Below are positions 8,787 through 63,249 of a stretch of 64,000 bases of DNA, piece by piece; positions within the stretch are counted from its first letter, which is position 1, and the number at the start of each line of letters is the position of its first letter. Source of the stretch: Shigella phage SP18. A program made the translations under genes and the position numbers. The notes under the pieces are model-generated. The model saw only the letters and a list, made by a program, of their open reading frames with translations, was not told where the DNA came from and made no database searches. Location: sequence record GQ981382. One strand, 5' to 3'.

Positions 8787-9256
8787 TTTAAACTCTTTCT
8801 AAGCTGCTTCTTAAATGAAGCCATTAATTGTGTTTTGGTGTCAGATTCATTATAAGTCATACCATTCAAAAGCATTTCCCGAATCATTTCTTCTTTTCCC
8901 AGGCGACCGAACTCTTTGGCTTTGTCTGTTACAAAATTGGGGTGAATATTGTTTTCGGTATAATCAGATTTCAGATAGACAAGCAAACTCTCTAACCATT
9001 CCAGGTAGTCAACATCGCGACTTTTTAGACCCGAACGGCTGAACTTATGCTTCATTTGTCCTTCTGTTCCATTGCACAGATTGCATAGTAACCCGCGAAC
9101 CTTACCGGCTTTTGGTCCGTTCAATTCGTGGTCATGGTCAAGATGGTTGGCCTGAACATCAGAGTCCAAATCACGGTGGCAAATTGGACACTTACCAGCT
9201 TGTGCATCATAAAGTTTTTGTTTTTCTTCTTTGTATAATTTGCCAGTCAACAACAT
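8783..9256 (-). CDS. 49: Endonuclease VII (Holliday junction resolvase) gp49
   Basis: 157 aa; near-identical to recalled T4 endo VII (MLLTGKLYKEEKQK..., HLDHDHELNGPKAGKVRGLLCNLCN, C-terminal KKQLRKSLK). Confidence 0.93.
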   Translation of the reverse strand: MLLTGKLYKEEKQKLYDAQAGKCPICHRDLDSDVQANHLDHDHELNGPKAGKVRGLLCNLCNGTEGQMKHKFSRSGLKSRDVDYLEWLESLLVYLKSDYTENNIHPNFVTDKAKEFGRLGKEEMIREMLLNGMTYNESDTKTQLMASFKKQLRKSLK

Positions 9257-9386
9257 AATAAAACCCTTACCATTATTAGATAAGGGTATTTATTAATATC
9301 CTAATAGTTTAGCAGTGCAACTTAGCACTAACAACAATCCGAATAAAGCAACTCCGGCCCAAAATACCGTAATAAGAGCATCCATA

Positions 9387-9563
9387 TCAGACCCCGTAGA
9401 ACGAGCGATGCAAACGTTTAAATTGACGAATCATCTTTTTAGTAGGACGGGTATATAATCCTACACAGGTGGCCATAAACTGGTCAGTAGGGCTTCCTTT
9501 GATAAGAAGTTTCCAGACCTTGTCACCGTTTAACTTTTCGGTATAGACTAATGCAGTTTTCAT
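9387..9563 (-). CDS. Small hypothetical protein (about 58 aa)
   Basis: Hand-translated minus ORF MKTALVYTEKLNGDKVW...; TAATG overlap with upstream ORF; below track cutoff. Confidence 0.3.
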   Translation of the reverse strand: MKTALVYTEKLNGDKVWKLLIKGSPTDQFMATCVGLYTRPTKKMIRQFKRLHRSFYGV

Positions 9564-9832
9564 TAAACAATCCTAAAACAAGGATAATGGCATTCAACGT
9601 TACCATTATCAATTATCATATACTCAGTGATACAGGTCCATGACCCTTCAATTTCTATGGTATCAAAAAGGTATTCATCTGTTTCAACAACGTCCCAAAC
9701 ATTACATTCAACGTCAGGGTCAAAACGTTGTCTTAACGCATGGATAACATCACCATTTTTAAATCCTGCGTCTTGAAGCTCTTTCATAAAACCTGATTGA
9801 GCAGCATGAATATTAACAATTTCTAAAAACAT
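9563..9832 (-). CDS. Hypothetical protein (89 aa)
   Basis: ORF track. Confidence 0.45.
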   Translation of the reverse strand: MFLEIVNIHAAQSGFMKELQDAGFKNGDVIHALRQRFDPDVECNVWDVVETDEYLFDTIEIEGSWTCITEYMIIDNGNVECHYPCFRIV

Positions 9833-56801: not shown

Positions 56802-58333
56802 TGACAACGACTAACACGCTAAAACATATTAGCGATAAATCCGAATATAAAACATTTGACCCGGTGGGAACTTCATTTCCTCCGTCGGTAACAAATGTTC
56901 AGGAAGCATTGGGAGCTTTGGCTCCTATTGCTATTGATGGATTTATCCCAGAATCTACGGTTGCAGTACCAGGTATTATTCGCCTGGCGACCGAACAAGA
57001 AGTTATTGATGGCATAGGCAATAACACTGCGGTAACCCCCGAAACTCTTAAAGCTCGTTTGAATATTCCAACTCAGGCCACAGAGACTGTTGTCGGAATT
57101 ACCCGTTACGCAACCGATGTAGAAGCTATTGATGGCACAGTAACCGATGCAGCTATTGTCCCATCAAGTCTTAAAGCTTCTATTGATAATACATTTAATA
57201 CCCGCACTTCTACAGAAGACCGTAATGGTGTAATTAAGATTTCGACTCAAGCCGCTGCTCTGGCAGGAACAGATGATACAACGGCAATGACTCCTTTGAA
57301 GGTTTCATTGGCCATCGGTGCAGCAACTGCAGCTCTTCCAACTTATAGCACAGCAACAACCACTGTACAGGGGATTGTTAAAATTGCAACCCCAGCCGAG
57401 GTTCAAGCCGGTGCAATGAATAACGGTGTGGCAGTTTCTCCACTTGGACTTATTTCATTGACTGCAAATGCCTCTCGCAGAGGGTTGGTCCAATTGGCTT
57501 CCAGTGCTGAAGCAATTACAGGTACGGATGCAACAAAAGCAATTACCCCACAAGCTCTTCAGGCAAAAACTGGTAATACCGGACGACTTGGTATTGTCAA
57601 ACTGACAACTACCGTTGGTTCAGGGGATGGTAACACTGCTCTTGCATATAATGCAAACGTAATTTCAACCACTGGTGGTACAATTACTGGAACTCTTAAC
57701 GTCAACGGAACTTTACGTAGAAATGGCCAGGACGTTGTAACCCGCAATGAAATTAAAGATGATGTTCCAATCGGAACTATTATTATGTGGGGTGGACAGA
57801 CAGGAAATATTCCTTCTGGTTGGGAAATTTGTGACGGTGGTAATGTCGGTGATGCTGGTTTCCGAAATGTCGTTGGTAGTAAATGGGGCGCAACTGGTAA
57901 TAAGCCAGATTTTCGTGGATTATTCCCTCGCGGTTCCAATAGCTCTAACGATGGCGCTATGAAGGAATGGGAAACAAACATTAATATAAGAAACGCCAAG
58001 GGAAATGATTCCAAACAAAAACCTAAATTGGGTCAAGGTGTTGGTTCATATGGCCATGGTACAGTGCAGGCACAACAACTCCGTTTCCACAAGCACGCAG
58101 GTGGGTTTGGTGAATTTTCTGATGACGGCTCTTTTGGTAATAGCATACGTTCTAATTTTGTAGGGACTAGCAAAAAAATAGACTGGGATAACCGCTCATA
58201 TTATACCAACGAGGGATATGAAATAGATGGTAATAATCGCACCCCTAAAAGTACATTAAACAGCGAAGGTCTGATAGGTAATGAAAGCCGCCCATGGTCC
58301 ATGTCCATTCTTTTTATTATTAAGGTCAGATAA
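56801..58333 (+). CDS. 12: Short tail fibre protein gp12
   Basis: 510 aa; KTFDPVGTSFPP, IRLATEQEVIDG, GVIKISTQAAALAGTDDTTAMTPLK, QQLRFHKHAGGFGEF, NESRPWSMSILFIIKVR match recalled T4 gp12. Confidence 0.93.
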   Translation: MTTTNTLKHISDKSEYKTFDPVGTSFPPSVTNVQEALGALAPIAIDGFIPESTVAVPGIIRLATEQEVIDGIGNNTAVTPETLKARLNIPTQATETVVGITRYATDVEAIDGTVTDAAIVPSSLKASIDNTFNTRTSTEDRNGVIKISTQAAALAGTDDTTAMTPLKVSLAIGAATAALPTYSTATTTVQGIVKIATPAEVQAGAMNNGVAVSPLGLISLTANASRRGLVQLASSAEAITGTDATKAITPQALQAKTGNTGRLGIVKLTTTVGSGDGNTALAYNANVISTTGGTITGTLNVNGTLRRNGQDVVTRNEIKDDVPIGTIIMWGGQTGNIPSGWEICDGGNVGDAGFRNVVGSKWGATGNKPDFRGLFPRGSNSSNDGAMKEWETNINIRNAKGNDSKQKPKLGQGVGSYGHGTVQAQQLRFHKHAGGFGEFSDDGSFGNSIRSNFVGTSKKIDWDNRSYYTNEGYEIDGNNRTPKSTLNSEGLIGNESRPWSMSILFIIKVR

Positions 58334-58342
58334 GGAATAAAA

Positions 58343-59920
58343 ATGATTAACAAATTAGAATTAGCGAATCTTCCGTTTGTCGATGGTGTACCAGAAGCTG
58401 ACCAGAAACGAATTGAATGGATTCGCAATGGTGATTGCTTAACTGCAGCCACTACCAAATATGGGCACGATGGTGCCCTTAACGCCGCAGCTTTTGGCGT
58501 ACAGACCAACGTTGAAACTCTGGAAAAGAATGACACAACCACTAAGGACAAAGTAAACGAAATTGTCGATAGTGTTAACCAGATTAAAGAAGCTCTGGAT
58601 ATTTCCACTGATGCAAGCGTTATCCAACAGATTGAAACCAACCGTCTTAATATTGTAAGTCTCCAGACGGGTTTAGCCGAAACTGATATTGCTTTACTTG
58701 ATACCAGCACAAATCTCGGTGAATTACAGGAAGATGTTGGTTATTATAACCCACTGGAAGATGGACCATATTTGACCGTTCGTGCTAATATTAACCGTAT
58801 TAAGCATGAAATGGGCCATTATGCAAACCAAGATATCAATGGTGACCCATTGCCTGAAGGCGAAACTAATGATGCCACCGGGATGAAACGTATTATCATC
58901 GATAACAGTACAGCAATTGCAACTACGCAACGTCGTCTTACTATTCTCGAGGAAAATTACAATGATTCTGATGTAGGTGGGCTCACGATTAAATTAAATG
59001 AGATACGCGAAGAATTAGGTCCGCGTACAGAAGGTATTGGTAAATCTCCTGTTTATACTCGTTTAACTGCAGTCGAAGCTAAAGCCGGAACTAATGAAAC
59101 TGATATAGGGAATATCAAAACCGCAATTGGTTTTGGCCAAGGTCAAAGTATCGCAAACCGTGTCGGGACTCTGGAAACCAAGGCAACAAATTTAGAAAAT
59201 ACCACTTCTGGTATGAATACAAGATTGTCGAAAGTTGAAACAGATATTGGTACTGATGCCGAACCGACTTCCATTAATGGTCGTCTAAAAACGTTGCGTG
59301 ATGACATGACAGGTGTTCGTGTTGTTATCGGGGAAAATACAAGCAGTGGTTTACAGGGACAAGTTGTTGCCCTTAACGTTGCAGTAGGTATTAGTGATAG
59401 CCCGGCACCGACTTCCTTAATTCCTCGTATGCGTGAAGTCGAAACTTCTAGTCGTGCGAACGCTGCAGCTATTCAGGATATTCAGGCTGAAATCGGTAAC
59501 AATCAGTCAGGCATCAAAGGTTCTATCCTGACTATTAAATCACAAATCGATGGGACCAACCCAAACGGTTCGACTGTTGCTGAAAAAGGTATTCTCCCGA
59601 CTGTTGAAGGTCTGGTCAATGAAATGCTGACTAAGCTCAGTGATGCACCATCTGATACGAAGATTTACGGTCGCCAAGACGGTGCTTGGGCCGAAATCGT
59701 TGGTGGTGATATTCCTGCTCTAGTATCACGTGTGGATGGTATCGAATCGCGCACCAGTGGAGCCGAGATACTGATAACTGAACTTGAAGGTAAAGTATCA
59801 GCCTTAGAAACAGAGCTCGCCAAAAGGCCTCCTGTCGCTCCTACGACTGACGGACTTCCTTATGTGCTCGTTGATAATGCATGGGTTCCTTTGTCGACAT
59901 TCGTGACTGTTGGACCATAA
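58343..59920 (+). CDS. wac: Fibritin (whisker protein) wac
   Basis: 525 aa; N-terminal LANLPFVDGVPEADQKRIEWIRNG; GENTSSGL, IQAEIGNNQSGIKG; C-terminal foldon-like YVLVDNAWVPLSTF. Confidence 0.9.
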   Translation: MINKLELANLPFVDGVPEADQKRIEWIRNGDCLTAATTKYGHDGALNAAAFGVQTNVETLEKNDTTTKDKVNEIVDSVNQIKEALDISTDASVIQQIETNRLNIVSLQTGLAETDIALLDTSTNLGELQEDVGYYNPLEDGPYLTVRANINRIKHEMGHYANQDINGDPLPEGETNDATGMKRIIIDNSTAIATTQRRLTILEENYNDSDVGGLTIKLNEIREELGPRTEGIGKSPVYTRLTAVEAKAGTNETDIGNIKTAIGFGQGQSIANRVGTLETKATNLENTTSGMNTRLSKVETDIGTDAEPTSINGRLKTLRDDMTGVRVVIGENTSSGLQGQVVALNVAVGISDSPAPTSLIPRMREVETSSRANAAAIQDIQAEIGNNQSGIKGSILTIKSQIDGTNPNGSTVAEKGILPTVEGLVNEMLTKLSDAPSDTKIYGRQDGAWAEIVGGDIPALVSRVDGIESRTSGAEILITELEGKVSALETELAKRPPVAPTTDGLPYVLVDNAWVPLSTFVTVGP

Positions 59921-59924
59921 CAAA

Positions 59925-59945
59925 AGGGCTTCGGCCCTTTTTTCG
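59925..59945 (+). terminator. Rho-independent terminator
   Basis: agggc-ttcg-gccct followed by ttttt. Confidence 0.65.
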
Positions 59946-59953
59946 TATAAATA
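59946..59953 (+). promoter_or_regulatory. T4-type late promoter TATAAATA upstream of gene 13
   Basis: tataaata then AAGAGG and ATG 59972. Confidence 0.65.
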
Positions 59954-59971
59954 CAGTAAAGAGGAAAACAT

Positions 59972-60910
59972 ATGGCAACTGAATCATACAACCCGAAACA
60001 ATTAAAAGATGCAATCCTTCGTCGTCTTGGTGCTCCAATCACGAATATCGAAGTTACGACCGAACAGGTTTATGATTGTATCCAGCGCGCATTAGAATTA
60101 TATGGCGAATATCATTATAATGGCTATAACAAAGGTTATCAGGCTTTTTATATCGGTCATGATGAAGTTTCACAACAGAAATTCCGTGATGGTGTTTTCG
60201 ATTTAAAAGGTCGTAATATTTTTGCAGTAACGCAGATTATTCGTACTAACGTCGGTTCATTAACTTCGATGGATGGTCAAGCAACATATCCATGGTTCAC
60301 AGATTTCGTTCTGGGGCTGGCTGGTATTAATGGTGGAATGGGTAGTTCGTGTAATAGTTTTGGTCCAAATGCTTTTGGGGCAGACCTTGGTTATTTTACA
60401 CAGCTTATGCAATATCGTTCGATGATGCAAGACCTGATGGTTCCACTTCCAGATTACTGGTATAATGACGATACGGAACAACTTAAAATTATGGGCAACT
60501 TCCGTCAGGGAGATGTTATTGTAATTGAAGTTTACACCAAATCCTTTAATGGTGTTGATGCAATGGCCAGCAATACTGCGGGTTACGGTTATGCTTCTGG
60601 TGATTGTTCAAATCCATGGAATGCTGGTGCACAGTGGGATAACCCTGCACGCAGAATAAGCGGTATGAGAGCCGGTGAGGACTTCGGACTTCAAGATGGC
60701 GCATACAACAACCGTTGGGTGAAAGACTATGCCACGGCACTCGTTAAGGAAGTTAACGGCAACGTATTGGCTAAACACCAGGGAATGATGATGCCAGGTG
60801 GTGTCACAGTTGATGGTGTCCGTTTAATCGAAGAAGCTCGCATGGAAAAAGAACGTCTTCGCGAAGAACTTGACCTGCTGGATGCACCGGCTGGAATACT
60901 AATTGGGTGA
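59972..60910 (+). CDS. 13: Neck protein gp13
   Basis: 312 aa; synteny wac-13-14. Confidence 0.85.
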
Positions 60911-60913
60911 TTA

Positions 60914-61549
60914 ATGACTACATACTATAGACTTTATGTATCAACATTTGAAACATCTAATGGGATAATGGTATATGGCGGTAAACGCCATTCACATTAT
61001 GAAGATTCTAAAGCGGATAGTTATTTCGGTTCTGGTACTATTGTCAAGCGAGCTAAACAAAAATACGGAAGGAAATGTTTAGTCGACATTACATGGTCTA
61101 AACCTTTTGAATCGCCTGCTCTATTAAAAGAAGCCGAAGCCTTACTAGTCAGTGAGCTTTTAGAAAGTTTCGATAATTGTGCAAATTTACATCCAACAGG
61201 GGGAGGTGGACCAGAAGGTTATAGTTGTCCAGAAGATTCCCCTGCCTTTGGTAAAAAGAGAACAGCAGAATCAAGAAAACGAATGTCAGACGCAGCAAAA
61301 CAAAGGGAATGGTCAGAAGAAGGATTAAAACGTCGTAAAGAATCAACAGCTCGAATGTGGATTGATTTTAAGGACAGACATCCAGATTTTTCTGATGATA
61401 AAAATCCGGCCGCGCGTAAAATTATTACCGGCGACCTAGAATTTTGTACCGGAAGAAAATGTGCAGAATATTATTCGATAACACCGGCGACGGTCATTTA
61501 CAGATGTAAAAGTACAGCCGAAAAATGGAAATTATGGAATTATGCGTAA
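60914..61549 (+). CDS. Putative GIY-YIG homing endonuclease (Seg-like), free-standing between genes 13 and 14
   Basis: 211 aa; N-terminal YYRLYV...GIMVYGGKR...YFGSG...E-rich helix...N fits GIY-YIG spacing; basic repeats [33 protein letters not shown] resemble NUMOD3-type DNA-binding modules. Confidence 0.6.
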
Positions 61550-62330
61550 TTCTTATGATGCAAGCTTATTCGCTCGGCTCGAAGATGGAACCGGGTATGA
61601 CAATACAAACTCGTCAGAGATACTCAACCAATATGTAAACTTTATGCATCATGAAAATACCCAGACTTTAGCAGATGCTATTGTTGCTGAAAGTATTCAG
61701 ATGCGCGGAATGTCTCTCTATTATATCCCAAGACAATTCGTTAAACCAGATTTGTTATTCGGTGAAGACCTCCAGAGTAAATTTGATAAAGCATGGAAAT
61801 TTGCTGGTTATCTGGATACGTTCGATGCTTATCAGGGTGATGGTTCTATCTTTAGTAAATGGGGTATGTCTGTGAACGATGAAATCACAATATCGATTAA
61901 CCCTAATCTGTTTAAACACCAATGCAATGGAACTGAACCTATTGCCGGGGATTTGATTTATTTCCCTCTTGATAACAGCCTGTTCGAGATAACCTGGGTG
62001 CAACCTTATGACCCGTTCTATCAGGTAGGTCAAAACGCCATTCGTAAAATAACTGCGAGCAAATACATTTACTCCGGGGAAGAGCTTAAACCTGAATTAC
62101 AACGAAATGAAGGTATTAATATTTCAGAATTCAGTGAGCTCGATTTGCAACCAATCCACAATATCGATGGCCTTACAGATATCAGCGATATCCCTTATGC
62201 AGAATCCGATGAGATTAACGCAGAAGCGGCTGAATATGTTAAACCATATTTTGTGCAGAACGGTCGTGGACTTGAGTCTCCTCCTAAGGCAAAACAGGAT
62301 AGCTTTGACGATAGTTTCTTTGACGAATAA
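61542..62330 (+). CDS. 14: Neck protein gp14
   Basis: 262 aa; synteny; start overlaps the endonuclease gene end. Confidence 0.85.
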
Positions 62331-62344
62331 ATACATTTATTAAT

Positions 62345-62361
62345 GCGCCCGAACTGGGCGC
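62345..62361 (+). other. Hairpin between genes 14 and 15
   Basis: gcgccc-gaact-gggcgc directly followed by GGAGG of gene 15. Confidence 0.35.
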
Positions 62362-62373
62362 CTGGAGGTTACT

Positions 62374-63249
62374 TTGTTTGGGCATTTTTATAATTCGTCT
62401 CTGCGTCGCTATATCGTTTTAATGGGCGATTTATTTTCCCATGTACAAGTGGCCAGAACCAGAGAAGACACTGGACTTAAATATATTAAGGTCCCTATTT
62501 CTTATGCGTCAAAAGAAAAATTCATGATGCAGCTTGGAAAATGGACCGCTATTCAGAATACACCGACTCCTGACATGTCGCCACAAGAACGTGCTGCTCA
62601 GAAGGCTAAAATCGAGACCGTATTGCCCCGTATGAACCTACATATGGTTGACTTGATGTATAACGGACAATATAAAACGGCTCTCCAGAATCACACACAG
62701 GCGCGATTTGCTAATAACGACCCTCGCAAGCAGATATCTCAATATTCTCCTGTGCCGGTCAAAATGATTTTCGAGCTTGGAATATATACAAGGCATCAAG
62801 ATGATATGTTCCAGATTATCGAACAAATCATGCCTTACTTCCAGCCACACTTTAATACAACCATCACCGAACTTTATACGAATGAAATTACGTTCGAACG
62901 TGATATAAGAATTGTATTGCAGTCCATAGCAATGGATGAGCAAATTGAAGGTGATGCAATGACTCGTCGTAGACTCGAATGGTCCATTATGTTCGAAGTT
63001 AACGGTTGGTTATATCCACCGGTCAAGGAAGTAGCCGGGGAAATCCGTACTATCTATCTTGACTTCTTTGCAAATTCCAGAGAGCTTGCACCGGAAGGTA
63101 ATTTCGAATCTGTTGACTCGGAAGCCGTTCCACGAGACGTCGACCAAGAAGACTGGCAAGGCGAATCTGTTCAAACCTATTCGCAGGATATTCCTGTACC
63201 GGTTGACCCAGCACCTCCAGCTCCAAGAAAAAATAGGGTACCATTATGA
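62374..63249 (+). CDS. 15: Tail sheath stabiliser / tail completion protein gp15 (apparent TTG start)
   Basis: [21 protein letters not shown]...[11 protein letters not shown]...[16 protein letters not shown] matches recalled T4 gp15; first codon TTG 5 nt after GGAGG; no in-frame ATG upstream. Confidence 0.88.

Follow-up and report, generated by a model that had tools for sequence, protein, structure and literature searches.

In phage T4 the neck genes 13 and 14 are adjacent (94553/94555), and in the DNA of Shigella phage SP18 analysed here (GQ981382; a stretch of 64,000 nt, hereafter the window) an ORF of 211 codons stands between them. The locus raises the question of what this ORF encodes, how it came to this junction, and how an essential neck gene is still expressed behind it. 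A sequence-only reading had taken the ORF for a free-standing GIY-YIG-like homing endonuclease gene (HEG), and this identity is supported by our results, as the protein falls in PHROG family 314, 'homing endonuclease' (E 1.8e-29), and has profile homology to the T4 endonucleases SegF and SegA. Our preferred reading, to which we give a probability of about 0.8, is that the ORF would encode an active free-standing homing endonuclease of the T4 Seg type inserted between genes 13 and 14.

The inserted gene and its domains

The ORF listing places the ATG-started HEG at 60914..61549 on the plus strand, with a gp13-like gene on its 5' side and a gp14-like gene on its 3' side. Gene 13, for the neck or head-tail adaptor protein, occupies 59972..60910 (+; PHROG 211, head-tail adaptor Ad2, E 6.7e-42; 96% DNA identity to annotated gp13 genes), and gene 14, for neck or head closure, occupies 61542..62330 (+; Pfam T4_neck-protein, E 2.4e-101). 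The left junction reads TGA-TTA-ATG, in which 3 nt separate the last base of the gene 13 stop (60910) from the first base of the HEG's ATG (60914); at the right junction, ATGCGTAA, the HEG overlaps gene 14 by 8 nt. The layout first proposed, namely the 211-aa ORF, its tight ends and the adjacency of the two neck genes in T4, is confirmed throughout. The window phage is a Gaprivervirus (the VR7 group of T4-like coliphages), the last 25 kb being 96-97% identical to CJ20, VR20 and phage 212. This is no chance ORF, given nine database homologues at E <= 6e-59 and a dN/dS of 0.05 (dS 0.33, dN 0.017) against the VR26 copy; moreover none of the six Gaprivervirus copies has a broken frame, and the protein is under strong purifying selection.

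The N-terminal half carries the predicted GIY-YIG nuclease domain (aa 1-98, 60914..61207, +), as indicated by profile comparisons and the alignment of homologues. The motif string quoted in the sequence-only reading, YYRLYV..VYGGKR..YFGSG..E..N, is found in the protein, and its key residues are invariant among distant homologues (Y21, G23, Y37, G39, G41, E75 and N91 in a 54-sequence alignment). In the profile built from this distant-homologue sample, the motif residues Y8 (60935-60937), Y21 (60974-60976), E75 (61136-61138) and N91 (61184-61186; all on the plus strand) align with Y6, Y17, E75 and N90 of I-TevI. The position corresponding to I-TevI Arg27 falls within an unalignable loop of the HEG protein, and R25 is conserved only within the close family.

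A profile check had been proposed for the GIY-YIG and NUMOD modules, and its outcome is divided. Scanned alone, the HEG protein matches neither PF01541 GIY-YIG nor PF19835 SegE_GIY-YIG in Pfam at E<=1, and no GIY-YIG model in NCBIfam, where TIGR01453 'group I intron endonuclease' is weakly matched by the C-terminal half (E 0.0024, 17.9 bits vs cut-off 56). Among PDB sequences phmmer with the HEG protein finds nothing and the 54-sequence profile finds 1ln0 only at E 0.38; a plain Foldseek search with the first whole-protein model gives no GIY-YIG match, and the homologues from Aeromonas phage 25 and an Enterobacter phage, annotated 'GIY-YIG' and tried as Pfam bridges, have no Pfam match either. 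This Pfam miss is ascribed to a divergent branch, as T4 SegF, an accepted member, also goes unmatched by Pfam GIY-YIG while SegA is matched. Family profiles, on the other hand, are positive: with a profile of nine close homologues, hhalign finds T4 SegF (residues 2-102, about 35% identity, E 2.8e-15) and SegA (E 6.9e-9), and single-sequence BLASTP retrieves SegF (4e-12, 33% over 129 aa), SegE (5e-7), SegA (6e-7) and SegD (1e-6), so that the homology to characterised Seg proteins is significant by both methods. An exhaustive profile search collects 7069 relatives at E <= 0.001; in a sample of about 53-54 distant homologues PF19835 SegE_GIY-YIG is matched by 10, PF01541 GIY-YIG by 4, NUMOD3 by 23 and I-TevI_DNA-bd by 8, and the profile from this sample reaches SegF, SegA, SegD and SegE at 6e-43 to 4e-33 and I-TevI at 6e-12. 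With the three-stranded sheet and flanking helices of the GIY-YIG fold, the nuclease domain is, judged by these comparisons, of the Seg type and specifically of the SegF type.

Behind the nuclease domain lies a NUMOD3-like basic linker segment (aa 109-125, 61238..61288, +), which Pfam scores at E 0.01 and 16.2 bits, below the cut-off of 20.4, while two homologues reach the cut-off with 20.7 bits. Of the basic repeats claimed earlier, one weak segment is thus retained, and the curated threshold is missed by the HEG protein itself. The C-terminal part (aa 156-208, 61379..61537, +) is a predicted helix-turn-helix DNA-binding domain of I-TevI type. The HEG protein alone has no match to PF20987 I-TevI_DNA-bd at E<=1 in Pfam; eight of eight homologues do match this model (E 1.6e-10 to 4e-4, a single one exceeding Pfam's cut-off), the I-TevI DNA-binding domain 1i3j is hit by the family profile over residues 146-207 (E 1.8e-5), and 1i3j is the top Foldseek match of the first structural model (probability 0.90). 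The layout is thus nuclease, basic linker and helix-turn-helix, like that of I-TevI. Since GIY-YIG and I-TevI-type modules are used in engineered nucleases, a new specificity would be of some practical value.

T4 SegF, a free-standing GIY-YIG homing endonuclease that lies between genes 56 and soc and has its target in gene 56, is the best-matching characterised protein, and shares with the HEG protein the pattern F/Y-Y-R-x-Y ... Y-x-G-K-H-x-S ... D-x-Y-x-G-S-G ... K-Y-G ... W-S-K ... E ... C-x-N. It differs in a C-terminal half without the I-TevI-type helix-turn-helix, in its genomic site and in its target gene. I-TevI is the intron-encoded GIY-YIG endonuclease of the T4 td intron, whereas the HEG is free-standing; moreover the HEG linker is without the zinc-finger cysteine pairs of I-TevI (by inspection and alignment, no paired CxxC/CxC between residues 95 and 155), and the loop between strand 2 and helix 1 carries the Seg-type insertion K-R-H-S ... 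D-S-Y-F-G-S-G. The T4 proteins SegA, SegD and SegE have nuclease domains homologous to that of the HEG (E 1e-33 to 1e-41 by the profile of about 54 sequences), and SegA has NUMOD3-type linkers, but their pairwise identity is 26-38% over 79-123 aa, and their insertion sites and C-terminal modules are others. The HEG is therefore an uncharacterised relative of the T4 Seg endonucleases, of a well-known kind. None of T4's 15 endonuclease genes is at the 13/14 junction (PMC2988022), and a literature search gave no description of an endonuclease gene at this place; the classic T4 set thus gains an uncharacterised SegF-related family with a defined genomic address. GenBank labels the gene 'homing endonuclease' or 'putative endonuclease'; the VR26 record (KP007362, our locus L013) annotates it from an internal ATG (8993-9574, 'similar to SegC'), where the full 211-codon ORF at 8939-9574 is intact and overlaps the gene 13 stop.

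Carriage at the junction and the donor-type tract

Counting Gaprivervirus records at least 90% identical over the 13-14 region, the HEG is present in 5 of 26 sequenced phages, namely P8, RZ, pEC-M719-6WT.2 (M719), TH40 and VR26 (7 records), while genes 13 and 14 abut in the other 21 (24 records). Several T4-like lineages outside this genus have homologues at the junction as well, 48-60% identical: they are present in 13 of about 150 close records in the F2 group, 3 of about 58 in Krischvirus and 16 of about 112 in the Slopekvirus type. In five further lineages from sequencing-run assemblies a homologue lies between gp13 and gp14 every time, and an IMG/VR scan for additional carriers gave 3 loci among the matches listed. 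Such sporadic presence at one fixed site among close relatives is typical of homing genes, and the comparison with insert-free relatives, together with the short donor-type tract described below, bears out the proposed mobility. As the element is carried by some readily grown coliphages and absent in close relatives, both marker exclusion and the cleavage site are directly testable.

In Krischvirus KFS-EC (Escherichia virus KFS-EC, NC_055757) the 13/14 gap is occupied by a different GIY-YIG endonuclease gene of 271 aa (L022:1287-2102; a related IMG/VR copy is at L076:727-1302). It shares with the HEG the junction and the three-module layout (SegE_GIY-YIG, NUMOD3, I-TevI_DNA-bd), but the closely related L076 copy is only about 31% identical to the HEG protein; unlike the HEG, the KFS-EC gene has a start of its own and is confined to the intergenic spacer, and the native gene 14 start is intact. 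Since gene 14 of KFS-EC is RB49-like to about +66 and G5211-like thereafter, the junction resembles a hotspot at which one endonuclease gene takes the place of another.

The transfer itself can be traced in the window, 12 kb of which was aligned with five carriers and four non-carriers. Between gene 8 and wac, VR20 and CJ20 share 96-99% identity with the window and the carriers only 50-85%; in about 60880-61700 the identities are reversed, with 99-100% to P8, RZ, M719 and TH40 and 81-91% to VR20. In a tract of about 835 bp (60875..61709, +), every informative site matches P8/RZ/M719/TH40 and not the VR20-like backbone. On the left, positions 60283-60829 are almost all recipient-type, with the last such site at 60829; on the right, the first non-donor site is 61748 and the first recipient-type site 61829. 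The tract thus comprises the HEG with short flanks of co-conversion, about 25-40 bp on the left and about 165 bp on the right, a pattern as expected for homing into a VR20-like genome, and the window offers a clean natural example with a donor tract in an otherwise different backbone. Because the copy is nearly identical to that of M719 (two synonymous changes) in this backbone, the comparison indicates that the HEG was recently copied in from another phage. The shorter left and longer right flank suggests a break on the right-hand side of the insertion point, within gene 14.

A left HEG-linked patch, in which the last 7 codons of gene 13 and the spacer are recoded (60890..60913, +), gives the gp13 end ..PAGILIG in place of ..PTPILVG, and VR26 is without it. 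This end (60890-60910 in window-type carriers) is nearer to the ..PAGILVG of the F2 group than to the Gaprivervirus ..PTPILVG, which hints that the element and its left flank may have come from another T4-like genus.

Elsewhere in the window, the region 57300-58300, covering the 3' part of a gp12-like short-tail-fibre gene and the start of wac, is 64-77% identical to VR20 and CJ20; VR7 and VR25 are 92-98% identical to the window up to about 57900, and all four fall to 81-86% at about 58050-58200. By these identities it is a separate recombination mosaic in a host-recognition gene.

The start of gene 14 and expression of the insert

How gene 14 is started behind the insert is best seen in VR26. 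The first four HEG codons in the window are ATGACTACATAC (60914..60925, +; M-T-T-Y); VR26 reads ATGGCTACATAT, the very 12 nt with which gene 14 opens (codons 1-4, M-A-T-Y) in VR7 and CJ20, both insert-free, and the TAATG that overlaps the gene 13 stop is kept. VR26 follows the insert-free sequence exactly through these 12 nt and then continues as endonuclease (M-A-T-Y-Y-R-L-Y...). On this identity, the HEG is judged to sit on the original start and ribosome-binding site of gene 14, and would be translated from them. At the other end, the ATG of gene 14 lies inside the last HEG codons (AAT TAT GCG TAA), 5 nt before the HEG stop codon, and homology to insert-free gene 14 resumes at TATGAY, after new ATGCGTAATTCT within the last HEG codons. 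The N-terminus of gp14 is thereby MRNSYD in the window as against MATYD in insert-free relatives, and the rewritten residues precede the N-terminal loop, which in T4 gp14 comprises residues 5-37 (PMC12929587).

The same arrangement is found in the F2 group when F2 is compared with its true insert-free relatives F27 and NRG-P0074, T4 being a misleading matched pair for F2. The taxonomy line of F2 (L003, MN864145) reads Tequatrovirus, and its nearest insert-free relatives in the 13-14 region, F27, NRG-P0074 and mar005P1, are labelled Mosigvirus. The Krischvirus and Slopekvirus-type versions of the HEG start in the short 13-14 spacer. The tight overlaps had been taken as a sign of recent insertion; this part of the sequence-only reading is not upheld, as the overlaps are an old, conserved feature of the element.

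In the window phage no good Shine-Dalgarno sequence of its own is seen at the gene 14 restart, which suggests termination-reinitiation coupling: gene 14 would be re-initiated from the ATG embedded in the last HEG codons, and its translation would be coupled to that of the HEG. A wider proposal is that the element took over the start of an essential neck gene, that gp14 output depends on HEG translation, and that the junction is a multi-genus hotspot where at least two distant GIY-YIG endonucleases compete; this we hold tentatively, with odds somewhat below even. If true, the takeover makes the element hard to lose and ties nuclease synthesis to late expression. It would illustrate a harmless route for a selfish gene into an essential structural operon.

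As for transcription, an exact match to the T4-type late-promoter consensus, TATAAATA, lies 19 nt upstream of gene 13 (59946..59953, +); six matches in the window are about the chance number, and it is the position that distinguishes this one, the likely promoter of a 13-HEG-14 transcript. A consensus scan found no late-promoter motif within the HEG ORF, the nearest being that at 59946, and a scan for sigma-70 promoters and terminators gave no more sites than shuffled sequence. The HEG is probably without its own promoter and transcribed late together with genes 13 and 14, which fits the promoter-less cassettes described for several T4 endonuclease genes; SegF, like the HEG, is a free-standing cassette of this kind in an existing operon (PMC2988022).

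At the HEG start, a predicted RNA hairpin (60903-60960) pairs the Shine-Dalgarno sequence and ATG with downstream sequence at -17.5 kcal/mol; it is marginal and unconvincing (z -2.3, with 3 of 200 shuffles as stable), and so is a hairpin at the gene 14 start (z -0.6). Hairpins that sequester the start site are known for other T4 endonuclease genes.

Recoded patches in gene 14 and rival explanations

In four phage groups, carriage of the HEG is linked to recoded patches within the first 48-111 nt of gene 14. In Gaprivervirus the patch spans +4..+87; its codons 6-30 (61557..61631, +) hold 12 fixed differences between six HEG-carrying and four HEG-less Gapriverviruses, and we consider it a candidate recognition or cleavage region. 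In the Slopekvirus pair the patch (+5..+86) holds 30 mismatches over its 82 nt; the 660 nt of the gene that follow have 12, and gene 13 with the spacer has 4 in 936 nt. The patch is +4..+66 or +4..+111 in Krischvirus and +4..+48 or +4..+63 in the F2 group, so that its end varies by group (+48/63, +86, +87, up to +111). Since such a patch is present in each group and gene 13 is not consistently altered in carriers, the predicted target is placed around the start of gene 14 in insert-free DNA, most likely at about -30..+90. The site may straddle the insertion point, in which case the insert splits it; or it may lie tens of bp downstream, by analogy with other free-standing endonucleases of T4, whose cleavage sites are some distance from the genes that encode them (PMC2988022). 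When a carrier and a HEG-less relative infect the same cell, the enzyme, with its SegF-like GIY-YIG nuclease, basic NUMOD3-like linker and I-TevI-like helix-turn-helix, would then cleave the 13/14 region of the insert-free genome, the first 90 bp or so of gene 14 being the most likely place, and repair from the HEG-carrying genome would copy in the gene with short flanks.

Other explanations of the locus have to be weighed against this. The HEG could be a domesticated or inactive remnant, kept for the start and coupling of gene 14, or a pure DNA-binding protein as in the repressor role of I-TevI. With the gene 14 ATG inside the ORF and no good Shine-Dalgarno sequence, selection would act against an exact deletion of the ORF, a review of T4 elements remarks that embedded host signals favour the retention of endonuclease genes (PMC2988022), and the Pfam GIY-YIG model is unmatched. 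However, the low dN/dS over the whole ORF means that the protein sequence is constrained beyond the reading frame, none of the 54 distant homologues departs from Y21, E75 or N91, and a near-identical copy in an otherwise VR20-like backbone points to recent transfer; we therefore regard a remnant as unlikely. It is very unlikely, in our judgement, that the HEG was a passive passenger on a tract gained by ordinary homologous recombination between co-infecting Gapriverviruses, even though T4-like phages recombine so freely that a short mosaic tract alone is no proof of endonuclease-driven transfer, and the same 12 kb holds other mosaic segments (e.g. at 57300-57700, from VR20-like to VR7-like) as signs of frequent general recombination. 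Against a passenger stand the size of the donor tract, which is short and centred on the ORF in a background otherwise unlike the donors, the sporadic occurrence of related genes at exactly this junction in at least four further phage groups, and the highly divergent gene 14 patch linked to the HEG in each group, of which the Slopekvirus pair is the plainest case.

[quoted passage not shown] The weak TIGR01453 match and the annotation of the G5211 homologue as 'putative group I intron endonuclease' would favour it, but no Rfam family is matched in 59800-62500 at E<=1, which excludes a group I intron here, and the ORF fills the insert from 3 nt after the gene 13 stop into gene 14, leaving no room for an intron and no split host gene. 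The HEG is free-standing, outside any intron or intein. Seen as an active Seg-type homing endonuclease, it holds nothing surprising to the specialist, and the most noteworthy points are the start-codon takeover and the clean co-conversion tract.

A more exact marker of the cleavage or immunity site was sought in the N-P-Y codons of gp14 (about +85). The right patch of the window ends in the Q codon of N-Q-Y where HEG-less relatives have N-P-Y, and in both Gaprivervirus and the Slopekvirus group the patch ends exactly at these codons; carriers have NQY, NKY or NPW, and 41 HEG-less IMG/VR loci have only NPY or NPF. The candidate was rejected as a marker, as the HEG-less relatives of the F2 group already have NKY and the patch there ends at +48/63; it is further weakened by one carrier lineage that keeps NPY and another with NPF. 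We retain the codon change as a weak lead. In Escherichia phage vB_EcoM_005 (L024:2120-3000, in a 155 kb record), gene 14, which there follows a homologue of the HEG, is interrupted by 14 inserted nt after about +94, and a segment further along is replaced; the first break falls at the codons N-P-F-V-N, and the disruption is probably an assembly artefact.
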